Shown here: positions 51 through 5,092 of the stretch, piece by piece
Layout of the letters: every line of letters starts with the position of its first letter
How positions within the stretch are numbered: position 1 is the first letter of the stretch
IMG/VR virus record: IMGVR_UViG_3300018477_000019
Coordinates: 1-5,092 of that record
Length of the DNA stretch: 5,092 bases
Source: a virus
Taxonomy: Duplodnaviria; Heunggongvirae; Uroviricota; Caudoviricetes
Reading direction: 5' to 3' (one strand)
The notes under the pieces: model-generated
Databases searched by the model: none
What the model was told of the DNA's origin: nothing
What the model saw: the letters and a program-made list of their open reading frames with translations, nothing else
Translations under genes and position numbers: made by a program

Positions 51-1026
51 CTTTCAGAACCGTCAGAACGGACCATTCAGCCTCGACACTATCGACCGAG
101 TTCAAAACGCTATCGCAAATCACGTAGTCGTAACGCCCTCGCGTTTTTAAGTCGTCCACCAGCGTATCAATCATTCGGTTTGTTGCAGCCCTATCCAGAG
201 TGTTTCCAGCGCCCTTACGGCGGAAAAGCTCGAGATCATGCAGGTTATATCCCTTTGCCCTGAGCATTCGCGCGTAGTCTCCCTGCCCCGAACCAAAATC
301 AATTCCTCTTGGCGTCTTGGCAATGATCGGGAGGATCAACGACTCATACAGATTTGATTTCAGGCTGCCACCATTACGCAACCGCATAAGCTGCGCATAC
401 GTCTGGATGTATGTTGTTTTCTCCAGATGAGAATACTCAAATACACCATAAGTTTTATTCAGATAACTTTGGTATTTTTCCTTCTCAACATCAGGGATCA
501 CAAACACCGTTAGCGGTGTGCGCGTCATTTTCGCTGCTAATGCATACTGAGCACAGTGAATAACCTCACCAGACTGAGTAGCAACACAACCACCCCACGG
601 ACCATACTTGATAACCAGTTCCGCTATGTTCTTTCGAACATATGCCATTTTCGCGCGCATATTGCCTGAGATCTGGCTTGCCGATACCTGAACAAAACCA
701 TGCTTATCTTCCAGACCGGACACCCTGCAACGCTCATCTCCGCTATCAAAATCCGTTCCGTTATGCAGTTGGTTAAACCGTACTTCGTCGTATACCGTCG
801 TTTCACAGGGCAACACATACACCGCAGCACGCGTTATTCCCAATTTACGTAGCGCCTTCGTCCTTTGGTGTCCCGCCACCAGCAAATCGCCGCGCACTAT
901 CAATGGCTTCACAAGCCCCAGCTCCCTGACGCTTTCCGCCAGCCTCGCAAGATCATCCTCACCGATAAAACGCGGGTTATATTCCGCGCCGCGTAGGTGC
1001 GTTATGTCGTAATTGAGGTGAAGCAT
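28..1026 (-). CDS. ParB/Srx-like N-terminal domain fused to a class I SAM-dependent methyltransferase-like domain; 3' end truncated/chimeric with adapter
   Basis: Minus-strand ORF (track 28..1032). N-terminal ParB-type motif (…LIVRGDLLVAGHQRTKALRKLGI…); C-terminal region has a Rossmann SAM-binding motif I (IDFGSGQGDY) and a downstream YDYVICDSVL segment. No (D/N)PP(Y/F/W) motif in the retained part. Likely start is ATG at 1026-1024, preceded by GGAGG about 8 nt upstream and overlapping the upstream stop (TGATG); an in-frame GTG at 1032 is the alternative. The last ~7 codons and the stop at 28-30 lie inside adapter sequence, so the true C-terminus is unknown. Confidence 0.8.
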   Translation of the reverse strand: MLHLNYDITHLRGAEYNPRFIGEDDLARLAESVRELGLVKPLIVRGDLLVAGHQRTKALRKLGITRAAVYVLPCETTVYDEVRFNQLHNGTDFDSGDERCRVSGLEDKHGFVQVSASQISGNMRAKMAYVRKNIAELVIKYGPWGGCVATQSGEVIHCAQYALAAKMTRTPLTVFVIPDVEKEKYQSYLNKTYGVFEYSHLEKTTYIQTYAQLMRLRNGGSLKSNLYESLILPIIAKTPRGIDFGSGQGDYARMLRAKGYNLHDLELFRRKGAGNTLDRAATNRMIDTLVDDLKTRGRYDYVICDSVLNSVDSVEAEWSVLTVLKEIGRAHV

Positions 1027-1649
1027 CAGCACACCTCCCCAGCCAGCAATGCGGATACAAATCCGATATAGCTGCCATTATCATCAACATAACGAGACAC
1101 CGCGCAGTCAAAACGATCCGCTTCCTCATCCGTTGCCGGGATTTTATGACCTCCAAATGACAGGTACTGAACTTTTACGCCTGATTTGGCCTCATCCTTC
1201 TCAAATGGGATATCCATACCTTCTGTGTCATCGTAGACCGCCACACTCAATAAGTTATCCAGTTCGCGCTGAGTAAAACCAATTGAGTCCAGAGCAAAAT
1301 CATCGGCCGCAAGATCTGCAAGCTCCGCGCTTAACAACTCTTCATCCCAACCAGCATTCAGCGGAATACGGTTGTCGGCCAGACGATATGCCTTCTTCTG
1401 ATTCTCCGTTAGCCCAGCCAGAACAATGCAGGGAACATCATCCATCCCCAACTGAGTGGCCGCAGCAATTCGACCATGACCAGCAATTACAACGTTGTTC
1501 TCGTCTATCAGGATCGGATTAGTCCATCCGTACTCCTGTATGCTGGCAACAATCTGATCTACCTGCTCCACGGAGTGTGTGCGAGCGTTCTTTTCATAAC
1601 CAATCAACACAGAAAGTGGTAAAGAAACCACATTAAGTTGTTTTGTCAT
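1026..1649 (-). CDS. ParB-like nuclease (ParB N-terminal/Srx) domain protein, 207 aa
   Basis: Minus-strand ORF with ATG at 1649-1647 and TGA at 1028-1026. Contains a ParB N-terminal domain signature (…NPILIDENNVVIAGHGRIAAATQLGMDDVPCIVL…) and an acidic C-terminal half. Its stop overlaps the start of the downstream ParB-methyltransferase gene (TGATG), indicating translational coupling. Confidence 0.8.
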   Translation of the reverse strand: MTKQLNVVSLPLSVLIGYEKNARTHSVEQVDQIVASIQEYGWTNPILIDENNVVIAGHGRIAAATQLGMDDVPCIVLAGLTENQKKAYRLADNRIPLNAGWDEELLSAELADLAADDFALDSIGFTQRELDNLLSVAVYDDTEGMDIPFEKDEAKSGVKVQYLSFGGHKIPATDEEADRFDCAVSRYVDDNGSYIGFVSALLAGEVC

Positions 1650-1792
1650 GCCGTTTATCCGCTAAAATCCCCTCGCTTGTGCAAGCAAGTGGGCCTCGGT
1701 TTGTATCCACGGCACCCTGTGGGTATGAATGACTGTCGTCAGGTCGCAACTGACGGCGGTCGCCCACCTTCCAGTAATAAAAAAGCCACCAG

Positions 1793-1822
1793 CATTAACT
1801 CCACAATGAGCTGGAGTTAATG
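1793..1822 (-). repeat. Perfect 11-bp inverted repeat with 8-nt spacer in the intergenic region downstream of the Tfa-like gene; candidate terminator hairpin or operator
   Basis: CATTAACTCCA (1793-1803) / TGGAGTTAATG (1812-1822) are exact reverse complements with spacer caatgagc. On the minus-strand transcript the hairpin is followed about 8 nt later by UUUUUUAUUA. It lies about 60 nt after the Tfa-like stop (1884) and about 145 nt before the ParB start (1649). Confidence 0.35.
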
Positions 1823-1883
1823 AGGCAGCTTTGGTTTGCGCATTATCGCAGCCCCTGATAAGCACAAGAGCTGCTGTAATGCG

Positions 1884-2597
1884 TTACTCTGGTATCAAAC
1901 AGATGTGGCCGTTATTTACCTCAATGCGAGAGTATCTCGGCTTACCATCCACGATTCCGGTAATGACAAGTTCGCCATCAGGCGACCATTCTTCTTTGTC
2001 GTCTTCAAGTACCGCGCCTTCTGGCAGATCAATACAGGCAAAAACAGGACAGCCAGGATGACGTTTATCCTCCATCGCAATCAGCATCGACTCACCGAAC
2101 CACTCTGTAGTAGCACGGCCATCAGCCGCCTGATAGTGAATCAGATACTGGTTTTCGCCATTTGCATACTGAGCACGGGCTTGAACTTCTCCCCATTCGT
2201 CACTGATACGCATTGTTACCAGTTGGGATAATTCAAACTTAAACGGAACAGACTCTGCACCAATAGATATCGGTGAGTTTTCTCGCTGCTCTGGACCTTC
2301 ACGCTTCACAATTTGAACATCTTTGACGAGCCAATCACCTGTGTTATCTACTTTTCGATACTCATCGGTATCAGGTAACTCAATAACACTCATCCCATCC
2401 GGGCAAAGCAACGATACATCTTTCGAAACACTGCGGATAATGCCGTTATTGTCATACATCATCTTTAAAGTGTGAGGCTGAAATTTCTTCTGCTCCTCAT
2501 ACCAATTTCTTCCGTCTTCAGTAAAAAGCGGTAGCACATCTGGATGTTTGCCGCGGGGATCAATAAGCGGCGCACTGATATTTTTTAAATGCATCAT
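1884..2597 (-). CDS. Tail fibre assembly (Tfa/gpG-like) N-terminal domain protein with a divergent, non-canonical C-terminal region (237 aa)
   Basis: Minus-strand ORF with tandem ATG at 2597/2594 and TAA at 1886-1884. The N-terminal ~105 aa (MMHLKNI…EDGRNWYEEQKKFQPHTLKMMYDNNGII…DTDEYRKVDNTGDWLVKDVQIVKR) matches, from memory, the conserved N-terminal region of enterobacterial prophage tail fibre assembly proteins. The C-terminal ~130 aa lacks the usual Tfa C-terminal W..Y..L..RVD-type motif. No tail fibre gene lies upstream. Confidence 0.78.
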   Translation of the reverse strand: MMHLKNISAPLIDPRGKHPDVLPLFTEDGRNWYEEQKKFQPHTLKMMYDNNGIIRSVSKDVSLLCPDGMSVIELPDTDEYRKVDNTGDWLVKDVQIVKREGPEQRENSPISIGAESVPFKFELSQLVTMRISDEWGEVQARAQYANGENQYLIHYQAADGRATTEWFGESMLIAMEDKRHPGCPVFACIDLPEGAVLEDDKEEWSPDGELVITGIVDGKPRYSRIEVNNGHICLIPE

Positions 2598-2613
2598 ATA
2601 AATAACCCTACAT

Positions 2614-2778
2614 CTATCTCATTGACTTGAATGAAACGCACCCTGACCGCAATTGCTCCCGCTTACGCCGAAAAGCTCTCTGCGCCACTAAGATGCGCCA
2701 CAGGACACCAGCAATAACCACCAGCGAGATACAAAAACACACGGCCACAACCATCAGAAAAATGCCAACACCATTCAT
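2614..2778 (-). CDS. Small membrane peptide, 54 aa (one predicted TM helix plus basic C-terminal tail); not in the supplied ORF track
   Basis: Manual translation of the minus strand from ATG 2778-2776 to TAG 2616-2614 gives MNGVGIFLMVVAVCFCISLVVIAGVLWRILVAQRAFRRKREQLRSGCVSFKSMR. The ATG overlaps the TGA of the upstream 68-aa ORF (ATGA), and the stop lies 16 nt before the Tfa-like start. An alternative in-frame ATG at 2790 would add MDSF. Weak Shine-Dalgarno only. Confidence 0.4.
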   Translation of the reverse strand: MNGVGIFLMVVAVCFCISLVVIAGVLWRILVAQRAFRRKREQLRSGCVSFKSMR

Positions 2779-2981
2779 GAAACTATCCATTCTTCAATGA
2801 ATATCTCCAGTAATGTCAAGAGATACGCCGTCCCCAGCGCGGTTCCTACCGATATAGCTAAAACAAACCTCAAAGATAACGAGGTGTCTTTCGCTTTTCT
2901 CCAGACGTAAGCGCCAGCCAGAAATACCAACAAATCTCTTATTGGAAGCGGAAACCAGAACAAATCACTCGGCAAGTCCAC
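2775..2981 (-). CDS. Small hydrophobic protein, 68 aa, two predicted TM segments; GTG start
   Basis: Minus-strand ORF starting at GTG (2981-2979), 2 nt after the TAA of the 151-aa gene, with a purine-rich GGAAGGA about 7 nt upstream; stop TGA at 2777-2775. Product MDLPSDLFWFPLPIRDLLVFLAGAYVWRKAKDTSLSLRFVLAISVGTALGTAYLLTLLEIFIEEWIVS has two hydrophobic stretches and no internal Met. Tight packing with flanking genes supports it, but the non-ATG start lowers confidence. Confidence 0.4.
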   Translation of the reverse strand: MDLPSDLFWFPLPIRDLLVFLAGAYVWRKAKDTSLSLRFVLAISVGTALGTAYLLTLLEIFIEEWIVS

Positions 2982-2983
2982 GG

Positions 2984-3439
2984 TTATATCCTTCCATTCA
3001 TTTTTATCGGATGACCAGATAGCCTTACGCAGTTGAGCTGTAAAGCTCCGGTATCAACTAAATAATCAACTAACATGATTAGAGATTCATATTCAGCCAG
3101 ATAGCTAACCTGACGCATTCGACCGCCGTTGTTCTCCAGAATGTCGGCCACCTTTGCAGCCAACTCGCTTAGACAGGAGAACTTATTCCCATATATCGTT
3201 TTATACTCGCGCTTCTGGCATTCTTCGGCTTGCGGCTGGTTATCGAGAGCTATCAGCGACCGATAACTATCAAGGAAGTCCACAATCTCATTCAGGCACT
3301 CTTTGGCTGCCTCATCGTGACTTTTTCCGTATGCTTCATGGAGGACTTTCATCCTCATCATTGCTCCGTCACACATAATCGAAAGCGCGTAAAGCACATC
3401 ACTAATCGCCATTTCTTTTTTGGTGCTTGTCGAAGGCAT
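2984..3439 (-). CDS. Hypothetical protein, 151 aa, probably cytoplasmic and helical; no recognised family
   Basis: Minus-strand ORF with ATG at 3439-3437 preceded by a strong Shine-Dalgarno (AAAGGAGAAC-ATG); stop TAA at 2986-2984. It sits immediately downstream of an intrinsic terminator, so it opens a transcription unit or is reached by read-through. No motif I could assign. Confidence 0.7.
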   Translation of the reverse strand: MPSTSTKKEMAISDVLYALSIMCDGAMMRMKVLHEAYGKSHDEAAKECLNEIVDFLDSYRSLIALDNQPQAEECQKREYKTIYGNKFSCLSELAAKVADILENNGGRMRQVSYLAEYESLIMLVDYLVDTGALQLNCVRLSGHPIKMNGRI

Positions 3440-3464
3440 CCCATGTTCTCCTTTGTCTGGATGT

Positions 3465-3490
3465 AAAAAAGCCCCGGCAATTGCCGAGGC
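3465..3490 (-). terminator. Rho-independent terminator after the 89/65-aa gene pair
   Basis: Minus-strand RNA GCCUCGGC-AAUU-GCCGGGGC followed by UUUUUU: an 8-bp GC-rich stem (7 Watson-Crick pairs plus one G-U), 4-nt loop and 6-U tract, beginning 24 nt after the TAA (3516-3514) of the 65-aa gene. Confidence 0.65.
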
Positions 3491-3513
3491 TCGTTGTTCG
3501 TTATCGTTACGGT

Positions 3514-3711
3514 TTAATGCTCGCGTCGTCCGGCGACAACTTCGGATTTGTATTTCAGGTCGCCCAGCAAGAATTGCAGTTTAAGCATCTTTGCCGCCGT
3601 GTAGTTCCCTGATTCCACAACCTCTTTCATGAGGTCATAAACGGCCGCTACATCATCAGCCAGGAACTCTTTGCGTTGCTGCTCAGTCGCACGTTTGAAG
3701 GAAATACGCAT
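3514..3711 (-). CDS. Hypothetical small protein, 65 aa (66 aa if started at GTG 3714)
   Basis: Minus-strand ORF with ATG at 3711-3709 overlapping the TGA of the upstream 89-aa gene by 1 nt (TGATG); stop TAA at 3516-3514, followed by the intrinsic terminator. Product MRISFKRATEQQRKEFLADDVAAVYDLMKEVVESGNYTAAKMLKLQFLLGDLKYKSEVVAGRREH looks helical and charged; no family assigned. Confidence 0.62.
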   Translation of the reverse strand: MRISFKRATEQQRKEFLADDVAAVYDLMKEVVESGNYTAAKMLKLQFLLGDLKYKSEVVAGRREH

Positions 3712-3980
3712 CACTCATCATCTCCTGCCGCACATACAACCTCACAAAAAACATCAGCGGAATGTTTCTCCTTGAACGAATGACGCTCAAAACCGCACTC
3801 AATATCAGGCGCAAAAACATCCACCACATACGGTCTTTCAGAATGTTTGTTTTCCCAACGATAAACCGTAGTGACGTTGAAATGTTTTAACGCTTCACGG
3901 AACTCAACGCTGCCAGTCAGGTTTTTTGAGGTCAGGTATTGCAGGAGGTTTTTTACTACTTCACGGTCTTGTACTTTCAT
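3711..3980 (-). CDS. Hypothetical small protein, 89 aa, acidic C-terminus
   Basis: Minus-strand ORF with ATG at 3980-3978 preceded by GGAGA about 8 nt upstream; stop TGA at 3713-3711. Product MKVQDREVVKNLLQYLTSKNLTGSVEFREALKHFNV…CAAGDDE. First gene of a two-gene unit with the 65-aa ORF. Confidence 0.7.
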   Translation of the reverse strand: MKVQDREVVKNLLQYLTSKNLTGSVEFREALKHFNVTTVYRWENKHSERPYVVDVFAPDIECGFERHSFKEKHSADVFCEVVCAAGDDE

Positions 3981-4024
3981 CGGGTTATCTCCGGTTTAAC
4001 CAGGGCGGGTATCGCTCGGTTTCG

Positions 4025-4062
4025 GTTATAACCTTAGGAAATTTTTTCCCACCTGTAAAGCA
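4025..4062 (-). promoter_or_regulatory. Candidate sigma70-type promoter for the 89/65-aa operon
   Basis: On the minus strand, TTTACA (plus 4059-4054), a 17-nt spacer, then TAAGGT (plus 4036-4031), about 50 nt upstream of the ATG at 3980 in a 112-bp AT-rich intergenic region. The -10 is a weak match; a consensus TATAAT also occurs within the palindrome at 4081-4092 without a good -35. Sequence inspection only. Confidence 0.25.
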
Positions 4063-4092
4063 CTTTTTATATAAATCTATAATTATATAATT

Positions 4093-4680
4093 CTATGACA
4101 CTTGCCAGAGAGCATCATGCAACTGGATACCTCCGTTGCACTGGTTGCCCCAGCCATGCCAGCCATCAGGTAAATCACCGCGAGCAAACAGCTCAATACG
4201 AGGAACATCACCTAACAGTCTTACCAGCTTGTCACGAACCACATCAGGCTTCCGTGAATGTTCCAGACGAGGCGATGTAAACGACTGAATGATCCCCGCA
4301 TCAAGGCGAGTCGGCAGTTTGCCTTTTACCGCAAACAAGCAATCTTCACTGTTCGCACGAGTCATATGCCCCATCCCCATCACCAGCTTATCTGGCTGTC
4401 GGCTACCACATTTGTTCCATGTGAAGCCCTTCATGGTCATCAGCCTGAATCCCCATGCTTTCACCACCAGCAACGCTTCTTCTGGCTGAGTCGGAACCCA
4501 CCACATGGCCAACAAACACGATTCAGGATTAGCAAGCTGCCAGACAGGAATACGAGCAATCTCCTCAGCTTTCATCGTTGGATACTTAAAACCAGCTCCA
4601 CGATTCCCATCCTTACACTTGTCTTTGTATTCCCAGGGGGGATCTGCATAAATCAGATTAAACAATGCAATTGCCTCCAT
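4093..4680 (-). CDS. MT-A70-family N6-adenine DNA methyltransferase (phage-type orphan Dam-like methylase), 195 aa
   Basis: Minus-strand ORF with ATG at 4680-4678 (GGAGG about 10 nt upstream) and TAG at 4095-4093. N-terminal catalytic DPPW motif (LIYADPPWEY) and downstream EHSRKP and ELFAR segments typical of MT-A70-type adenine methyltransferases. No adjacent restriction endonuclease gene. Confidence 0.88.
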   Translation of the reverse strand: MEAIALFNLIYADPPWEYKDKCKDGNRGAGFKYPTMKAEEIARIPVWQLANPESCLLAMWWVPTQPEEALLVVKAWGFRLMTMKGFTWNKCGSRQPDKLVMGMGHMTRANSEDCLFAVKGKLPTRLDAGIIQSFTSPRLEHSRKPDVVRDKLVRLLGDVPRIELFARGDLPDGWHGWGNQCNGGIQLHDALWQVS

Positions 4681-4988
4681 GTTAGTTGTGCCTCCGGCGC
4701 TTATCTCCGGCAGTCATAACGCTGGCCAGCTCTACAGCAAACACAACGAAAAGGGCACTAACCAGACTGATTAATGCCCTTGCCTGTTGTGTGCCGGATA
4801 TCGCCAGACAACGCTGTTTTGGTAACACGGCTACAGTTCCGCGCCGCTCCAGCTTTTACCCCTTTGCGGATAACAGGCCCTGCCTGTAACTTAGCCCCAC
4901 GTTCGCCCGAAATGCGCACCAGGCACGCATAAAGATGAGCACGAAGGAAGTAACTCCACCGCGCTTATCTTTATGTGTGAGAGTGAAT

Positions 4989-5064
4989 TGGTGGCCCCTA
5001 CCGGATTTGAACCGATGACCGTGCGATTATGAGTCGCCTGCTCTAACCACTGAGCTAAGGGGCC
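4989..5064 (-). tRNA. tRNA with CAU anticodon; acceptor stem and D-arm resemble tRNA-Ile2 (lysidine, ileX-like) rather than tRNA-Met
   Basis: Reverse complement of 4989-5064 is GGCCCCTTAGCTCAGTGGTTAGAGCAGGCGACTCATAATCGCACGGTCATCGGTTCAAATCCGGTAGGGGCCACCA (76 nt). It folds as a cloverleaf: 7-bp acceptor stem, 4-bp D stem, anticodon loop CTCATAA, T stem ATCGG/CCGGT, T loop TTCAAAT, encoded CCA. The 5' ~43 nt match my memory of enterobacterial ileX; the variable loop and T stem differ with compensatory pairing. Confidence 0.85.
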
Positions 5065-5092
5065 ATATTTGATCTGTTTGTCTGATGTGGCG

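Follow-up and report, generated by a model that had tools for sequence, protein, structure and literature searches.

Three adjoining small genes, named p151, p68, and p54 after the lengths of their products in amino acids (aa), were analyzed in a 5,092-nucleotide (nt) stretch of viral DNA (Caudoviricetes; IMG/VR record IMGVR_UViG_3300018477_000019), which is referred to as the window at its full length and is part of a phage-plasmid of approximately 48 kb found in Escherichia and Salmonella. Every gene of the window is encoded on the minus strand. The p151 gene occupies positions 3439 to 2984 (ATG at 3439, TAA at 2986–2984), p68 positions 2981 to 2775 (GTG at 2981, TGA at 2777–2775), and p54 positions 2778 to 2614 (ATG at 2778–2776, TAG at 2616–2614). 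Two bases (2983–2982) separate the TAA of p151 from the GTG of p68, the ATG of p54 overlaps the stop codon of p68 as ATGA, and 16 nt lie between the end of p54 and the ATG (2597) of a 237-aa open reading frame (ORF) resembling tail-fiber assembly (Tfa) proteins; the tight packing described in the initial annotation was exact to the base. An in-frame ATG at 2790 is an alternative start that would give a p54 of 58 aa, and the Prokaryotic Genome Annotation Pipeline (PGAP) takes the ATGA start in relatives.

The cassette directly follows an intrinsic terminator (T2; minus strand, 3463–3492) with a 10-bp stem, a 4-nt loop, and a U6 tract, the hairpin of which (3492–3469) folds at −23.7 kcal/mol (z = −3.6; no shuffled sequence was as stable). 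The Shine–Dalgarno sequence AAGGAG (minus strand, 3448–3453) is placed 8 nt before the ATG of p151, and p68 has a ribosome-binding site (GGAAGGA) 7 nt before its GTG. Both the start just after a terminator and the strong Shine–Dalgarno sequence, as first described, were thus confirmed. T2 was almost base-for-base the same in the Salmonella lineages, and AGGAG and its spacing to the start codon were kept in all lineages, which makes these signals near-invariant compared with p151 proteins that are only approximately 35% identical. The coupling signals and ribosome-binding sites were also retained in every lineage. A second terminator (T3) was found directly after p54 in E. coli ATCC 25922 and in the related loci L023 and L031, at the same position in E. 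coli and Salmonella and with a different sequence; it is absent from the window because an insertion (see below) removed it. p151, p68, and p54 are genuine, translationally coupled genes.

Proteins of the cassette

p54 has a very hydrophobic N-terminal segment (Kyte–Doolittle 19-residue maximum of 3.13), forming its one transmembrane (TM) segment, which is followed by the conserved basic motif RILVAQRAFRRKREQ in a tail with a net charge of +7 or +8, a charged C-terminal tail such as is described for holins. The N-terminal TM helix and the basic tail noted at the outset were recovered. The p54 family shares this build, with an acidic or neutral N-terminal flank, one TM segment, and a basic tail with the consensus RRI[LF]V.Q+.F.RKREQ across lineages. 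In all four lineages, the N-terminal flank had a net charge of 0 to −2 and the tail one of +4 to +8, and from this charge distribution p54 is predicted to be oriented with its N-terminus out and its C-terminus in. The intact 50-aa form was observed on at least approximately 5,000 contigs (Escherichia, Shigella, and Salmonella; public assemblies) and corresponds to WP_001014663.1 and WP_001013684.1, which are RefSeq clusters named 'hypothetical protein'. The earlier description of p54 as unannotated was correct for the nearest RefSeq record, in which both p54 and p68 are uncalled, and incorrect for these 50-aa homologues, which are annotated elsewhere.

p68 has one clear hydrophobic segment (residues ~39–62; Kyte–Doolittle maximum of 1.9) and a weaker first one, which is broken by R15/D16 and prolines. 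It also contains a basic loop (RKAKDTSLSLR) and ends in the acidic 6-residue sequence EEWIVS, with no highly charged hydrophilic C-terminal domain. The hydrophobicity of p68 and p54 supports their assignment as membrane proteins, while the two TM segments originally given to p68 were upheld in part, as one segment is firm and the second span is plausible and not secure. In locus L005 (~2870; a plasmid of E. coli 23AR1217), a 30-nt in-frame deletion takes FWFPLPIRDL from the first hydrophobic segment, which argues that this segment is not an essential membrane span. The 68–70-aa forms of p68 accounted for approximately 600 contig observations in public assemblies, and such homologues are annotated in some GenBank records.

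p151 is a soluble, all-helical protein with no TM segment. Its N-domain (residues 1–65, PHROG 8319) was conserved in every lineage, and its C-domain (residues 66–151, PHROG 14707) was replaceable and shorter than in the 246–323-aa Salmonella homologues. The protein matched phrog_14707 over residues 1–151 (E 8.5e-103) and phrog_8319 over residues 1–65 (E 2.4e-38), and both are groups with no functional annotation. In most E. coli relatives, including ATCC 25922, residues 66–151 (86 residues) were exchanged for an unrelated 34-residue tail, yielding a 99-aa protein of PHROG 8319. Word-indexed searches with p151, p68, and p54 retrieved only relatives with at least 69% identity, all from the same element, and an exhaustive HMMER search with p151 retrieved remote homologues of 251 and 323 aa on contigs of syntenic Salmonella phage-plasmids. 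Three hits of the latter search (P0042, P0044, and P0048) were true remote homologues; P0043, P0045, and P0047 were discarded as spurious eukaryotic repeat proteins (tetratricopeptide and ankyrin repeats among them). When window positions 2984–3100 were compared with the C-termini of P0042, P0044, and P0048, p151 was found to end at the point beyond which the longer Salmonella homologues have a segment resembling a helix-turn-helix (VKKVDGISLSHLQQLF) and then a tail reading 'ITVNSPAITV'. That tail motif is kept in the 99-aa E. coli variant, which has lost the middle. Set against the Salmonella forms, this variant and the short p151 therefore identify the family as a mosaic of deletion derivatives.

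Structure prediction of p151 with AlphaFold2 gave a predicted local distance difference test (pLDDT) score of 47 from the single sequence and 57 from a 9-sequence alignment, and only the N-terminal helical hairpin (residues 12–58) was confident. Foldseek comparison of the model with BFVD and PDB returned nothing below E 0.2, the model being too poor for fold assignment. No sequence relatives of p151 were found in PDB, and a profile search with the C-domain against PDB sequences was also negative.

None of the three proteins was assigned to a family of known function by Pfam, PHROGs, NCBIfam, PADLOC, PDB sequence, or fold searches, in agreement with the original statement that no component matches a recognized family; as for a structural or lysis family that might explain p151, only the two PHROGs named above were matched. 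No holin profile was found for p68 or p54 in the Pfam and PHROGs scans at E ≤ 0.1, and PADLOC-DB v2 gave zero matches at E ≤ 1 for p151, p68, p54, and the neighboring genes. Pfam and NCBIfam likewise gave no match to described toxin families (Hok/Gef, Ldr, TisB, Ibs, ShoB, and others), with sub-threshold hits to CcmD and to domains of unknown function (DUFs) only; the CcmD model (TIGR03141) scored 18.9 bits against p54, below its cut-off of 25.95. A literature search on the accessions of the cassette proteins found nothing.

Conservation and variation among relatives

The E. coli lineage DNA was 90–100% identical at the locus, which leaves little power to test the small frames within it. In Salmonella Weltevreden (NZ_LN890526.1) and locus L026, a p151 homologue of 246/323 aa is followed by a 67-aa ORF (ATGA overlap) and then by a 50-aa ORF, which overlaps the 67-aa ORF by 13 nt. 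In a second Salmonella lineage (S. salamae CP053324.1, L023, and L031), the p68 homologue is cleanly absent; the stop codon of the 251-aa p151 homologue abuts the ATG of a 55-aa ORF in CP053324.1 and L023. BLASTP aligned p68 with the Salmonella 67-aa protein (42% identity over 66 residues, E 3e-20) and the 50-aa with the 55-aa p54-family peptides (44% identity, E 4e-13), in both cases with no gaps. By the Nei–Gojobori method, the proportions of synonymous (pS) and nonsynonymous (pN) differences between E. coli and Salmonella p68 were 0.98 and 0.38, with synonymous sites saturated, and the ratio of nonsynonymous to synonymous rates (omega) in the p54 core was approximately 0.2–0.6 between lineages. 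The ORF lengths, the TM position, the basic motif, and the coupling arrangement were all kept at the Salmonella distance. The two checks proposed for the small frames, namely conservation across homologous loci and substitution ratios, thus came out in their favor, the p54 frame being kept in homologous loci and the p68 frame in one Salmonella lineage. We consider it very probable that the cassette is a real coding one.

Within the E. coli lineage, the p54 frame was stop-free in all loci spanning it (n = 22) except L002, and substitutions in its TM segment were conservative, replacing hydrophobic with hydrophobic residues. The ratio (nonsyn/N)/(syn/S) was 0.73–0.85 for the p151 C-domain, p68, and p54, compared with 0.10–0.37 for the MT-A70 methyltransferase gene, the 66-aa ORF, the p151 N-domain, the PHROG 1935 gene, and ParB, and the window and L006 differed in the p54 core by nine nonsynonymous and zero synonymous changes. 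Such high ratios indicate relaxed or diversifying evolution, which is common for accessory membrane proteins.

The exception, L002 (~3930), is the Yersinia phage vB_YpM_41, in which, as in vB_YpM_44, a 1-nt deletion after the TM segment shortens p54 to approximately 29 aa; p54 is intact in vB_YpM_39. Four other independent frameshift forms (P0039, P0040, P0041, and P0017), which could be either real mutations or sequencing errors, were observed on approximately 33 contigs, compared with at least approximately 5,000 contigs carrying the intact form. Counter-selection of p54 as a toxic protein was rejected on the basis of these counts.

The p54–ParB stretch was found to be a variable slot, as compared at window ~2614–2650, L012 3330–3851, and L004 2431–2500. 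It holds a 136-aa PHROG 1935 gene, the Tfa fusion, or, in a third arrangement, a 147-aa weakly DUF2513-like gene. In the window, a 373-bp inserted segment with a tail-fiber-assembly N-domain (minus strand, 2275–2647) has replaced approximately 90 bp of ancestral sequence, including T3 and the native C-terminal codons of p54; relatives without 2275–2647 have those ~90 bp there. As the left edge of the insertion falls inside p54, the last 11 codons of the gene (2614–2647; RSGCVSFKSMR) are a recombination-derived neo-C-terminus in place of ...RLDFYRK, and residues 1–43 are the constant portion. The C-terminus of p54 before the 147-aa gene is FIDKFRQ. The junction of the slot has thus fallen repeatedly within the last 7–11 codons of p54, giving at least three C-termini (RLDFYRK, FIDKFRQ, and RSGCVSFKSMR). 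The insertion was present in only 6 of 69 matching E. coli complete-genome records. It created the chimeric 237-aa ORF (minus strand, 1884–2597), in which a Caudo_TAP N-domain (residues 1–103) is joined to a PHROG 1935 domain (residues 103–222), and which PGAP represents as a pseudogene and a separate 141-aa ORF. The Tfa-like ORF is a neighbor outside the cassette, a rare recombination scar.

The proposal of an obligate three-gene system tied to the Tfa-like gene was not supported. The 373-bp insertion overwrote the p54 C-terminus and the terminator and is rare, p68 is absent from the second Salmonella lineage, and the C-terminal 86 residues of p151 are exchanged in most E. coli relatives. Co-occurrence of the three genes in other genomes held for the p151 N-domain and p54, which were constant in all relatives, and not for p68, which was present or absent, or for the variable p151 C-domain. 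The invariant core is the p151 N-terminal helical domain together with a single-pass membrane peptide of 50–55 residues, as delimited by sequence comparison, and the second small membrane protein, p68, is an optional part lying between p151 and p54.

Upstream of the cassette, most relatives have a non-coding spacer of approximately 335 nt between a 64–66-aa gene and the p151 homologue (L006 3293–3625, minus strand; L023 4664–5000, plus strand; L031 2164–2500, plus strand; L027 735–1075, minus strand). It consists of a terminator (T1), approximately 270 nt, and T2. The spacer was deleted in the window, where only 3463–3513 is left. In E. coli and Salmonella lineages alike, the ~270-nt part had almost the same sequence, the genes on either side being far less conserved; from its sequence, it resembles a non-coding RNA or leader of a kind not yet described. 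An Rfam search of the terminator region and of this conserved element in relatives matched no family, and the variation was too small for a covariation test. Closed by T2 in most relatives, the element could be a regulatory RNA.

Over bases 51–5092, the window matched the circular 48.8-kb plasmid p48 of E. coli strain 1428 at 99.9% identity. As its record encodes RepA and ParA together with terminase, portal, capsid, a P2-type tail, and a lysis cassette, p48 is a phage-plasmid. Near relatives are a 48.5-kb plasmid of ATCC 25922 and the plaque-forming Yersinia phages vB_YpM_39, vB_YpM_41, and vB_YpM_44. A RelE/ParE toxin–antitoxin pair is present on the same phage-plasmid. Membership in the group of pSLy3 was ruled out, as that phage-plasmid was assigned to the SSU5 supergroup (10.1101/2025.09.12.675607). 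A scan of genome contigs for relatives found none, and tblastn with ParB207 for remoter syntenic relatives returned unrelated ParB-like genes only.

The gene order in the window is a phage-borne tRNA with a CAT anticodon (minus strand, 4989–5064; tRNA-Met by ARAGORN, tRNA-Ile by PGAP in E. coli records), an MT-A70 methyltransferase gene (minus strand, 4680–4093), an 89-aa ORF, a 66-aa ORF, the terminator, p151, p68, p54, the 237-aa Tfa-like ORF, and two ParB-domain genes. Bases 1–50 read as an Illumina index-primer/adapter (...CATACGAGAT-ACATCG-GTGACTGGAGTTCAGACGTGTGCTCTTCCGATCT). All database matches begin at base 51, and none reach into bases 1–50, which are therefore adapter contamination at the contig end; the 334-aa ORF at 28–1032 is thus a truncated copy of a 457-aa ParB-methyltransferase gene.

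The element has a lysis cassette approximately 2.3 kb upstream, which is complete even if p151, p68, and p54 are left out of account. It encodes two holin-family proteins (Phage_holin_8 and Phage_holin_3_7), a GH108 endolysin, and an i-spanin with an embedded o-spanin lipoprotein. Three genes, a tRNA, and a terminator lie between the two cassettes. In locus L001, the o-spanin is a 69-aa lipoprotein ORF (minus strand, 25184–25393; lipobox LIASC) with no RefSeq annotation, which overlaps the 3′ end of a 92-aa i-spanin-like gene (25308–25586). A spanin role for the cassette genes was rejected, as an i-spanin with its embedded o-spanin already follows the endolysin.

Possible functions of the cassette

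Overall, the best explanation, which we advance tentatively, is that p151, p68, and p54 constitute a coupled accessory cassette acting at the membrane, with exclusion as the best guess for its role. That the cassette has a membrane-acting accessory role of some kind is reasonably probable; that the role is an exclusion-type function (superinfection exclusion or a related process) protecting the carrier or infected cell, rather than lysis, is possible and distinctly less secure. We infer that transcription would enter from the upstream genes, which run in the same direction, by reading through T2, probably in the lytic or late phase. Ahead of the cassette, the scans showed no sigma-70-like promoter in any lineage. 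Ribosomes would pass from p151 to p68 to p54 via the 2-nt gap and the ATGA overlap. p54 would then span the inner membrane, its N-terminus facing outward and its basic tail the cytoplasm. There it may influence a membrane process, and the p151 N-domain could serve as its cytoplasmic partner.

The content of the cassette varies between syntenic relatives (p68, the p151 C-domain, and the three downstream genes), as does that of the accessory units of phages known as morons, which carry a promoter and a terminator of their own. T3 lies directly downstream in ATCC 25922, L023, and L031 and has been lost in the window. Several observations weigh against an exclusion role. In the window, L023, L031, and L004, the consensus scan detected no sigma-70-like promoter in the interval from the upstream gene to p151, and the cassette, placed after a strong terminator, belongs to a run of late-type genes that all point the same way. 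An exclusion function normally requires expression in the lysogen. No homology to an exclusion, defense, holin, or toxin family was found in Pfam, PHROGs, PADLOC, or NCBIfam, and the p151 model was of low confidence. The near-neutral evolution of the small genes in E. coli is as compatible with weak constraint as with an arms race. Finally, vB_YpM_41 and vB_YpM_44 form plaques without the p54 tail, which is therefore dispensable for lytic growth.

Among the alternatives, a membrane toxin with a soluble partner is an unlikely one. On this view, p54, with or without p68, would be a membrane-depolarizing toxin and p151 its antitoxin or sensor. Together they would either kill cells that have lost the phage-plasmid (post-segregational killing) or abort infections as lambda RexA/RexB does. 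At 54 aa, and 50 aa in relatives, p54 is within the size of type I toxins (hydrophobic and below 60 aa), and one very hydrophobic TM segment with a charged tail gives it the shape of a small membrane toxin. The soluble gene is translationally coupled upstream of the membrane genes, all three genes evolve fast, independent frameshifts have removed the p54 tail, and the element, being a plasmid, would benefit from addiction modules. Against these points, no toxin family was matched in PADLOC or Pfam, and a RelE/ParE pair is already present. The consensus scan, which is weak evidence, found no plus-strand promoter- or terminator-like site overlapping 2614–2990 that might belong to an antisense antitoxin RNA. 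The p54 frameshifts are so rare that they give no sign of counter-selection, the C-domain of the supposed partner is freely swapped, and p68 is dispensable.

A lysis accessory role, in which p68 and/or p54 would be a holin, a pinholin, or an antiholin-type timing modulator expressed with the late genes, appears improbable. Both are small membrane proteins of a phage, encoded in the orientation of the late genes. p68 is similar to class II holins in length and in having two hydrophobic segments, p54 combines its TM segment with a highly charged tail, and the lack of a promoter makes expression probably lytic. Nevertheless, the complete lysis cassette upstream makes such a role unlikely; since the element is already supplied with a GH108 endolysin, spanins of both types, and two holin-family genes, the holin-like reading offered in the initial annotation was weakened. 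The absence of a holin profile, the lack in p68 of the charged C-terminal domain typical of holins, and the tolerance of p54 truncation by plaque-forming phages point in the same direction.

It is very unlikely that the cassette is a membrane-linked regulator, with the p151 family as DNA-binding helix-turn-helix proteins that the small membrane protein(s) would control or tether. The full-length Salmonella homologues do end in an IscR/Rrf2-like helix-turn-helix segment (P0042 267–300, reading ...VKKVDGISLSHLQQLF; E 0.012), and p151 residues 95–112 weakly match DUF7343 (E 0.045; best 0.012). All of these matches (E 0.012–0.045) were below curated thresholds, and the C-domain profile found nothing among PDB sequences. 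Moreover, the p151 of the window is cut off ahead of the putative recognition helix, and the entire domain is missing from most E. coli relatives; DNA binding therefore cannot be the conserved function.

Equally improbable is decay in this element, i.e., genes that are real in the family and here persist without a role under relaxed selection: the near-neutral substitution ratios within E. coli (with the purely nonsynonymous differences of the p54 core from L006), the short p151, the overwritten p54 C-terminus and lost T3, and the tolerated p68 deletion in L005 would fit it, but thousands of contigs carry intact frames, the p54 frame has no stop in the 22 E. coli-lineage loci except L002, the p54 TM substitutions are conservative, and every lineage has preserved the signals for coupling and ribosome binding.

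Returning to the accessory cassette as the preferred explanation, the p151 N-domain and p54, with p68 optional, might represent an undescribed membrane-acting system, i.e., an exclusion or abortive-infection module or an addiction toxin, whose expression T2 read-through may gate; we regard this as unlikely. The interpretation as an undescribed system was neither confirmed nor refuted, and what lies at the locus is a lineage-restricted accessory cassette that is not exceptional among phage ORFans. The phage-plasmid family is very common, one of the commonest in E. coli, and is present in the quality-control and reference strain ATCC 25922; to know what its conserved membrane peptide does would therefore be relevant to many strains, both clinical and laboratory ones. 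Should the cassette exclude other phages or stabilize the plasmid, this would bear on the host range in phage therapy and on the persistence of the element. The locus also illustrates how small overlapping genes are missed, since PGAP calls neither p68 nor the window variant of p54, and how recombination junctions can fall inside the last codons of a small gene.

Comparison with known systems

Catalogued entries close to the cassette proteins are PHROG 14707, PHROG 8319, and the RefSeq clusters of 50-aa peptides, and the 54-aa p54 variant of the window is not annotated in the nearest record. Like class II holins and pinholins (phage 21 S21-68), p68 has 68 aa and two hydrophobic segments, and both p68 and p54 are phage-encoded and co-oriented with late genes; a TM segment together with a charged tail is seen in p54 and not in p68. 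Unlike holin genes, those of the cassette are not beside the endolysin, and p68 has an acidic 6-residue C-terminus instead of a charged cytoplasmic domain. p54 resembles type I toxins (Hok/Gef, TisB, Ldr, Ibs, and ShoB) in its size of approximately 50 aa, its single strongly hydrophobic helix, and its location on a plasmid-like element. It differs from them in being a coupled third cistron rather than a standalone gene and in the lack of antisense RNA signals, and its predicted N-out/C-in orientation is the opposite of that of Hok.

With lambda RexA/RexB, the cassette shares a soluble protein gene directly upstream of the membrane protein gene(s) on a temperate element. No homology to this pair was found with PADLOC, RexB has four TM segments, and the lysogen expresses rexAB from the immunity region, while the cassette lies among late-oriented genes. 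p54 is also similar to CcmD in combining a single TM segment with a basic, arginine-rich juxtamembrane helix and a C-terminus predicted to be cytoplasmic, but this similarity is compositional and sub-threshold, and the heme-export context is absent.

The superinfection-exclusion membrane proteins of phages include T4 Imm, P22 SieA, HK97 gp15, and lactococcal Sie2009. Phage exclusion proteins are small inner-membrane proteins that are lineage-restricted and fast-evolving and are often set between terminators as moron units, which is the likeness that the cassette bears to them. It has no sequence or profile similarity to these four proteins, and no lysogenic promoter was found for it; a further difference from the exclusion proteins is that its membrane peptide is the last cistron of an operon coupled with a soluble protein.

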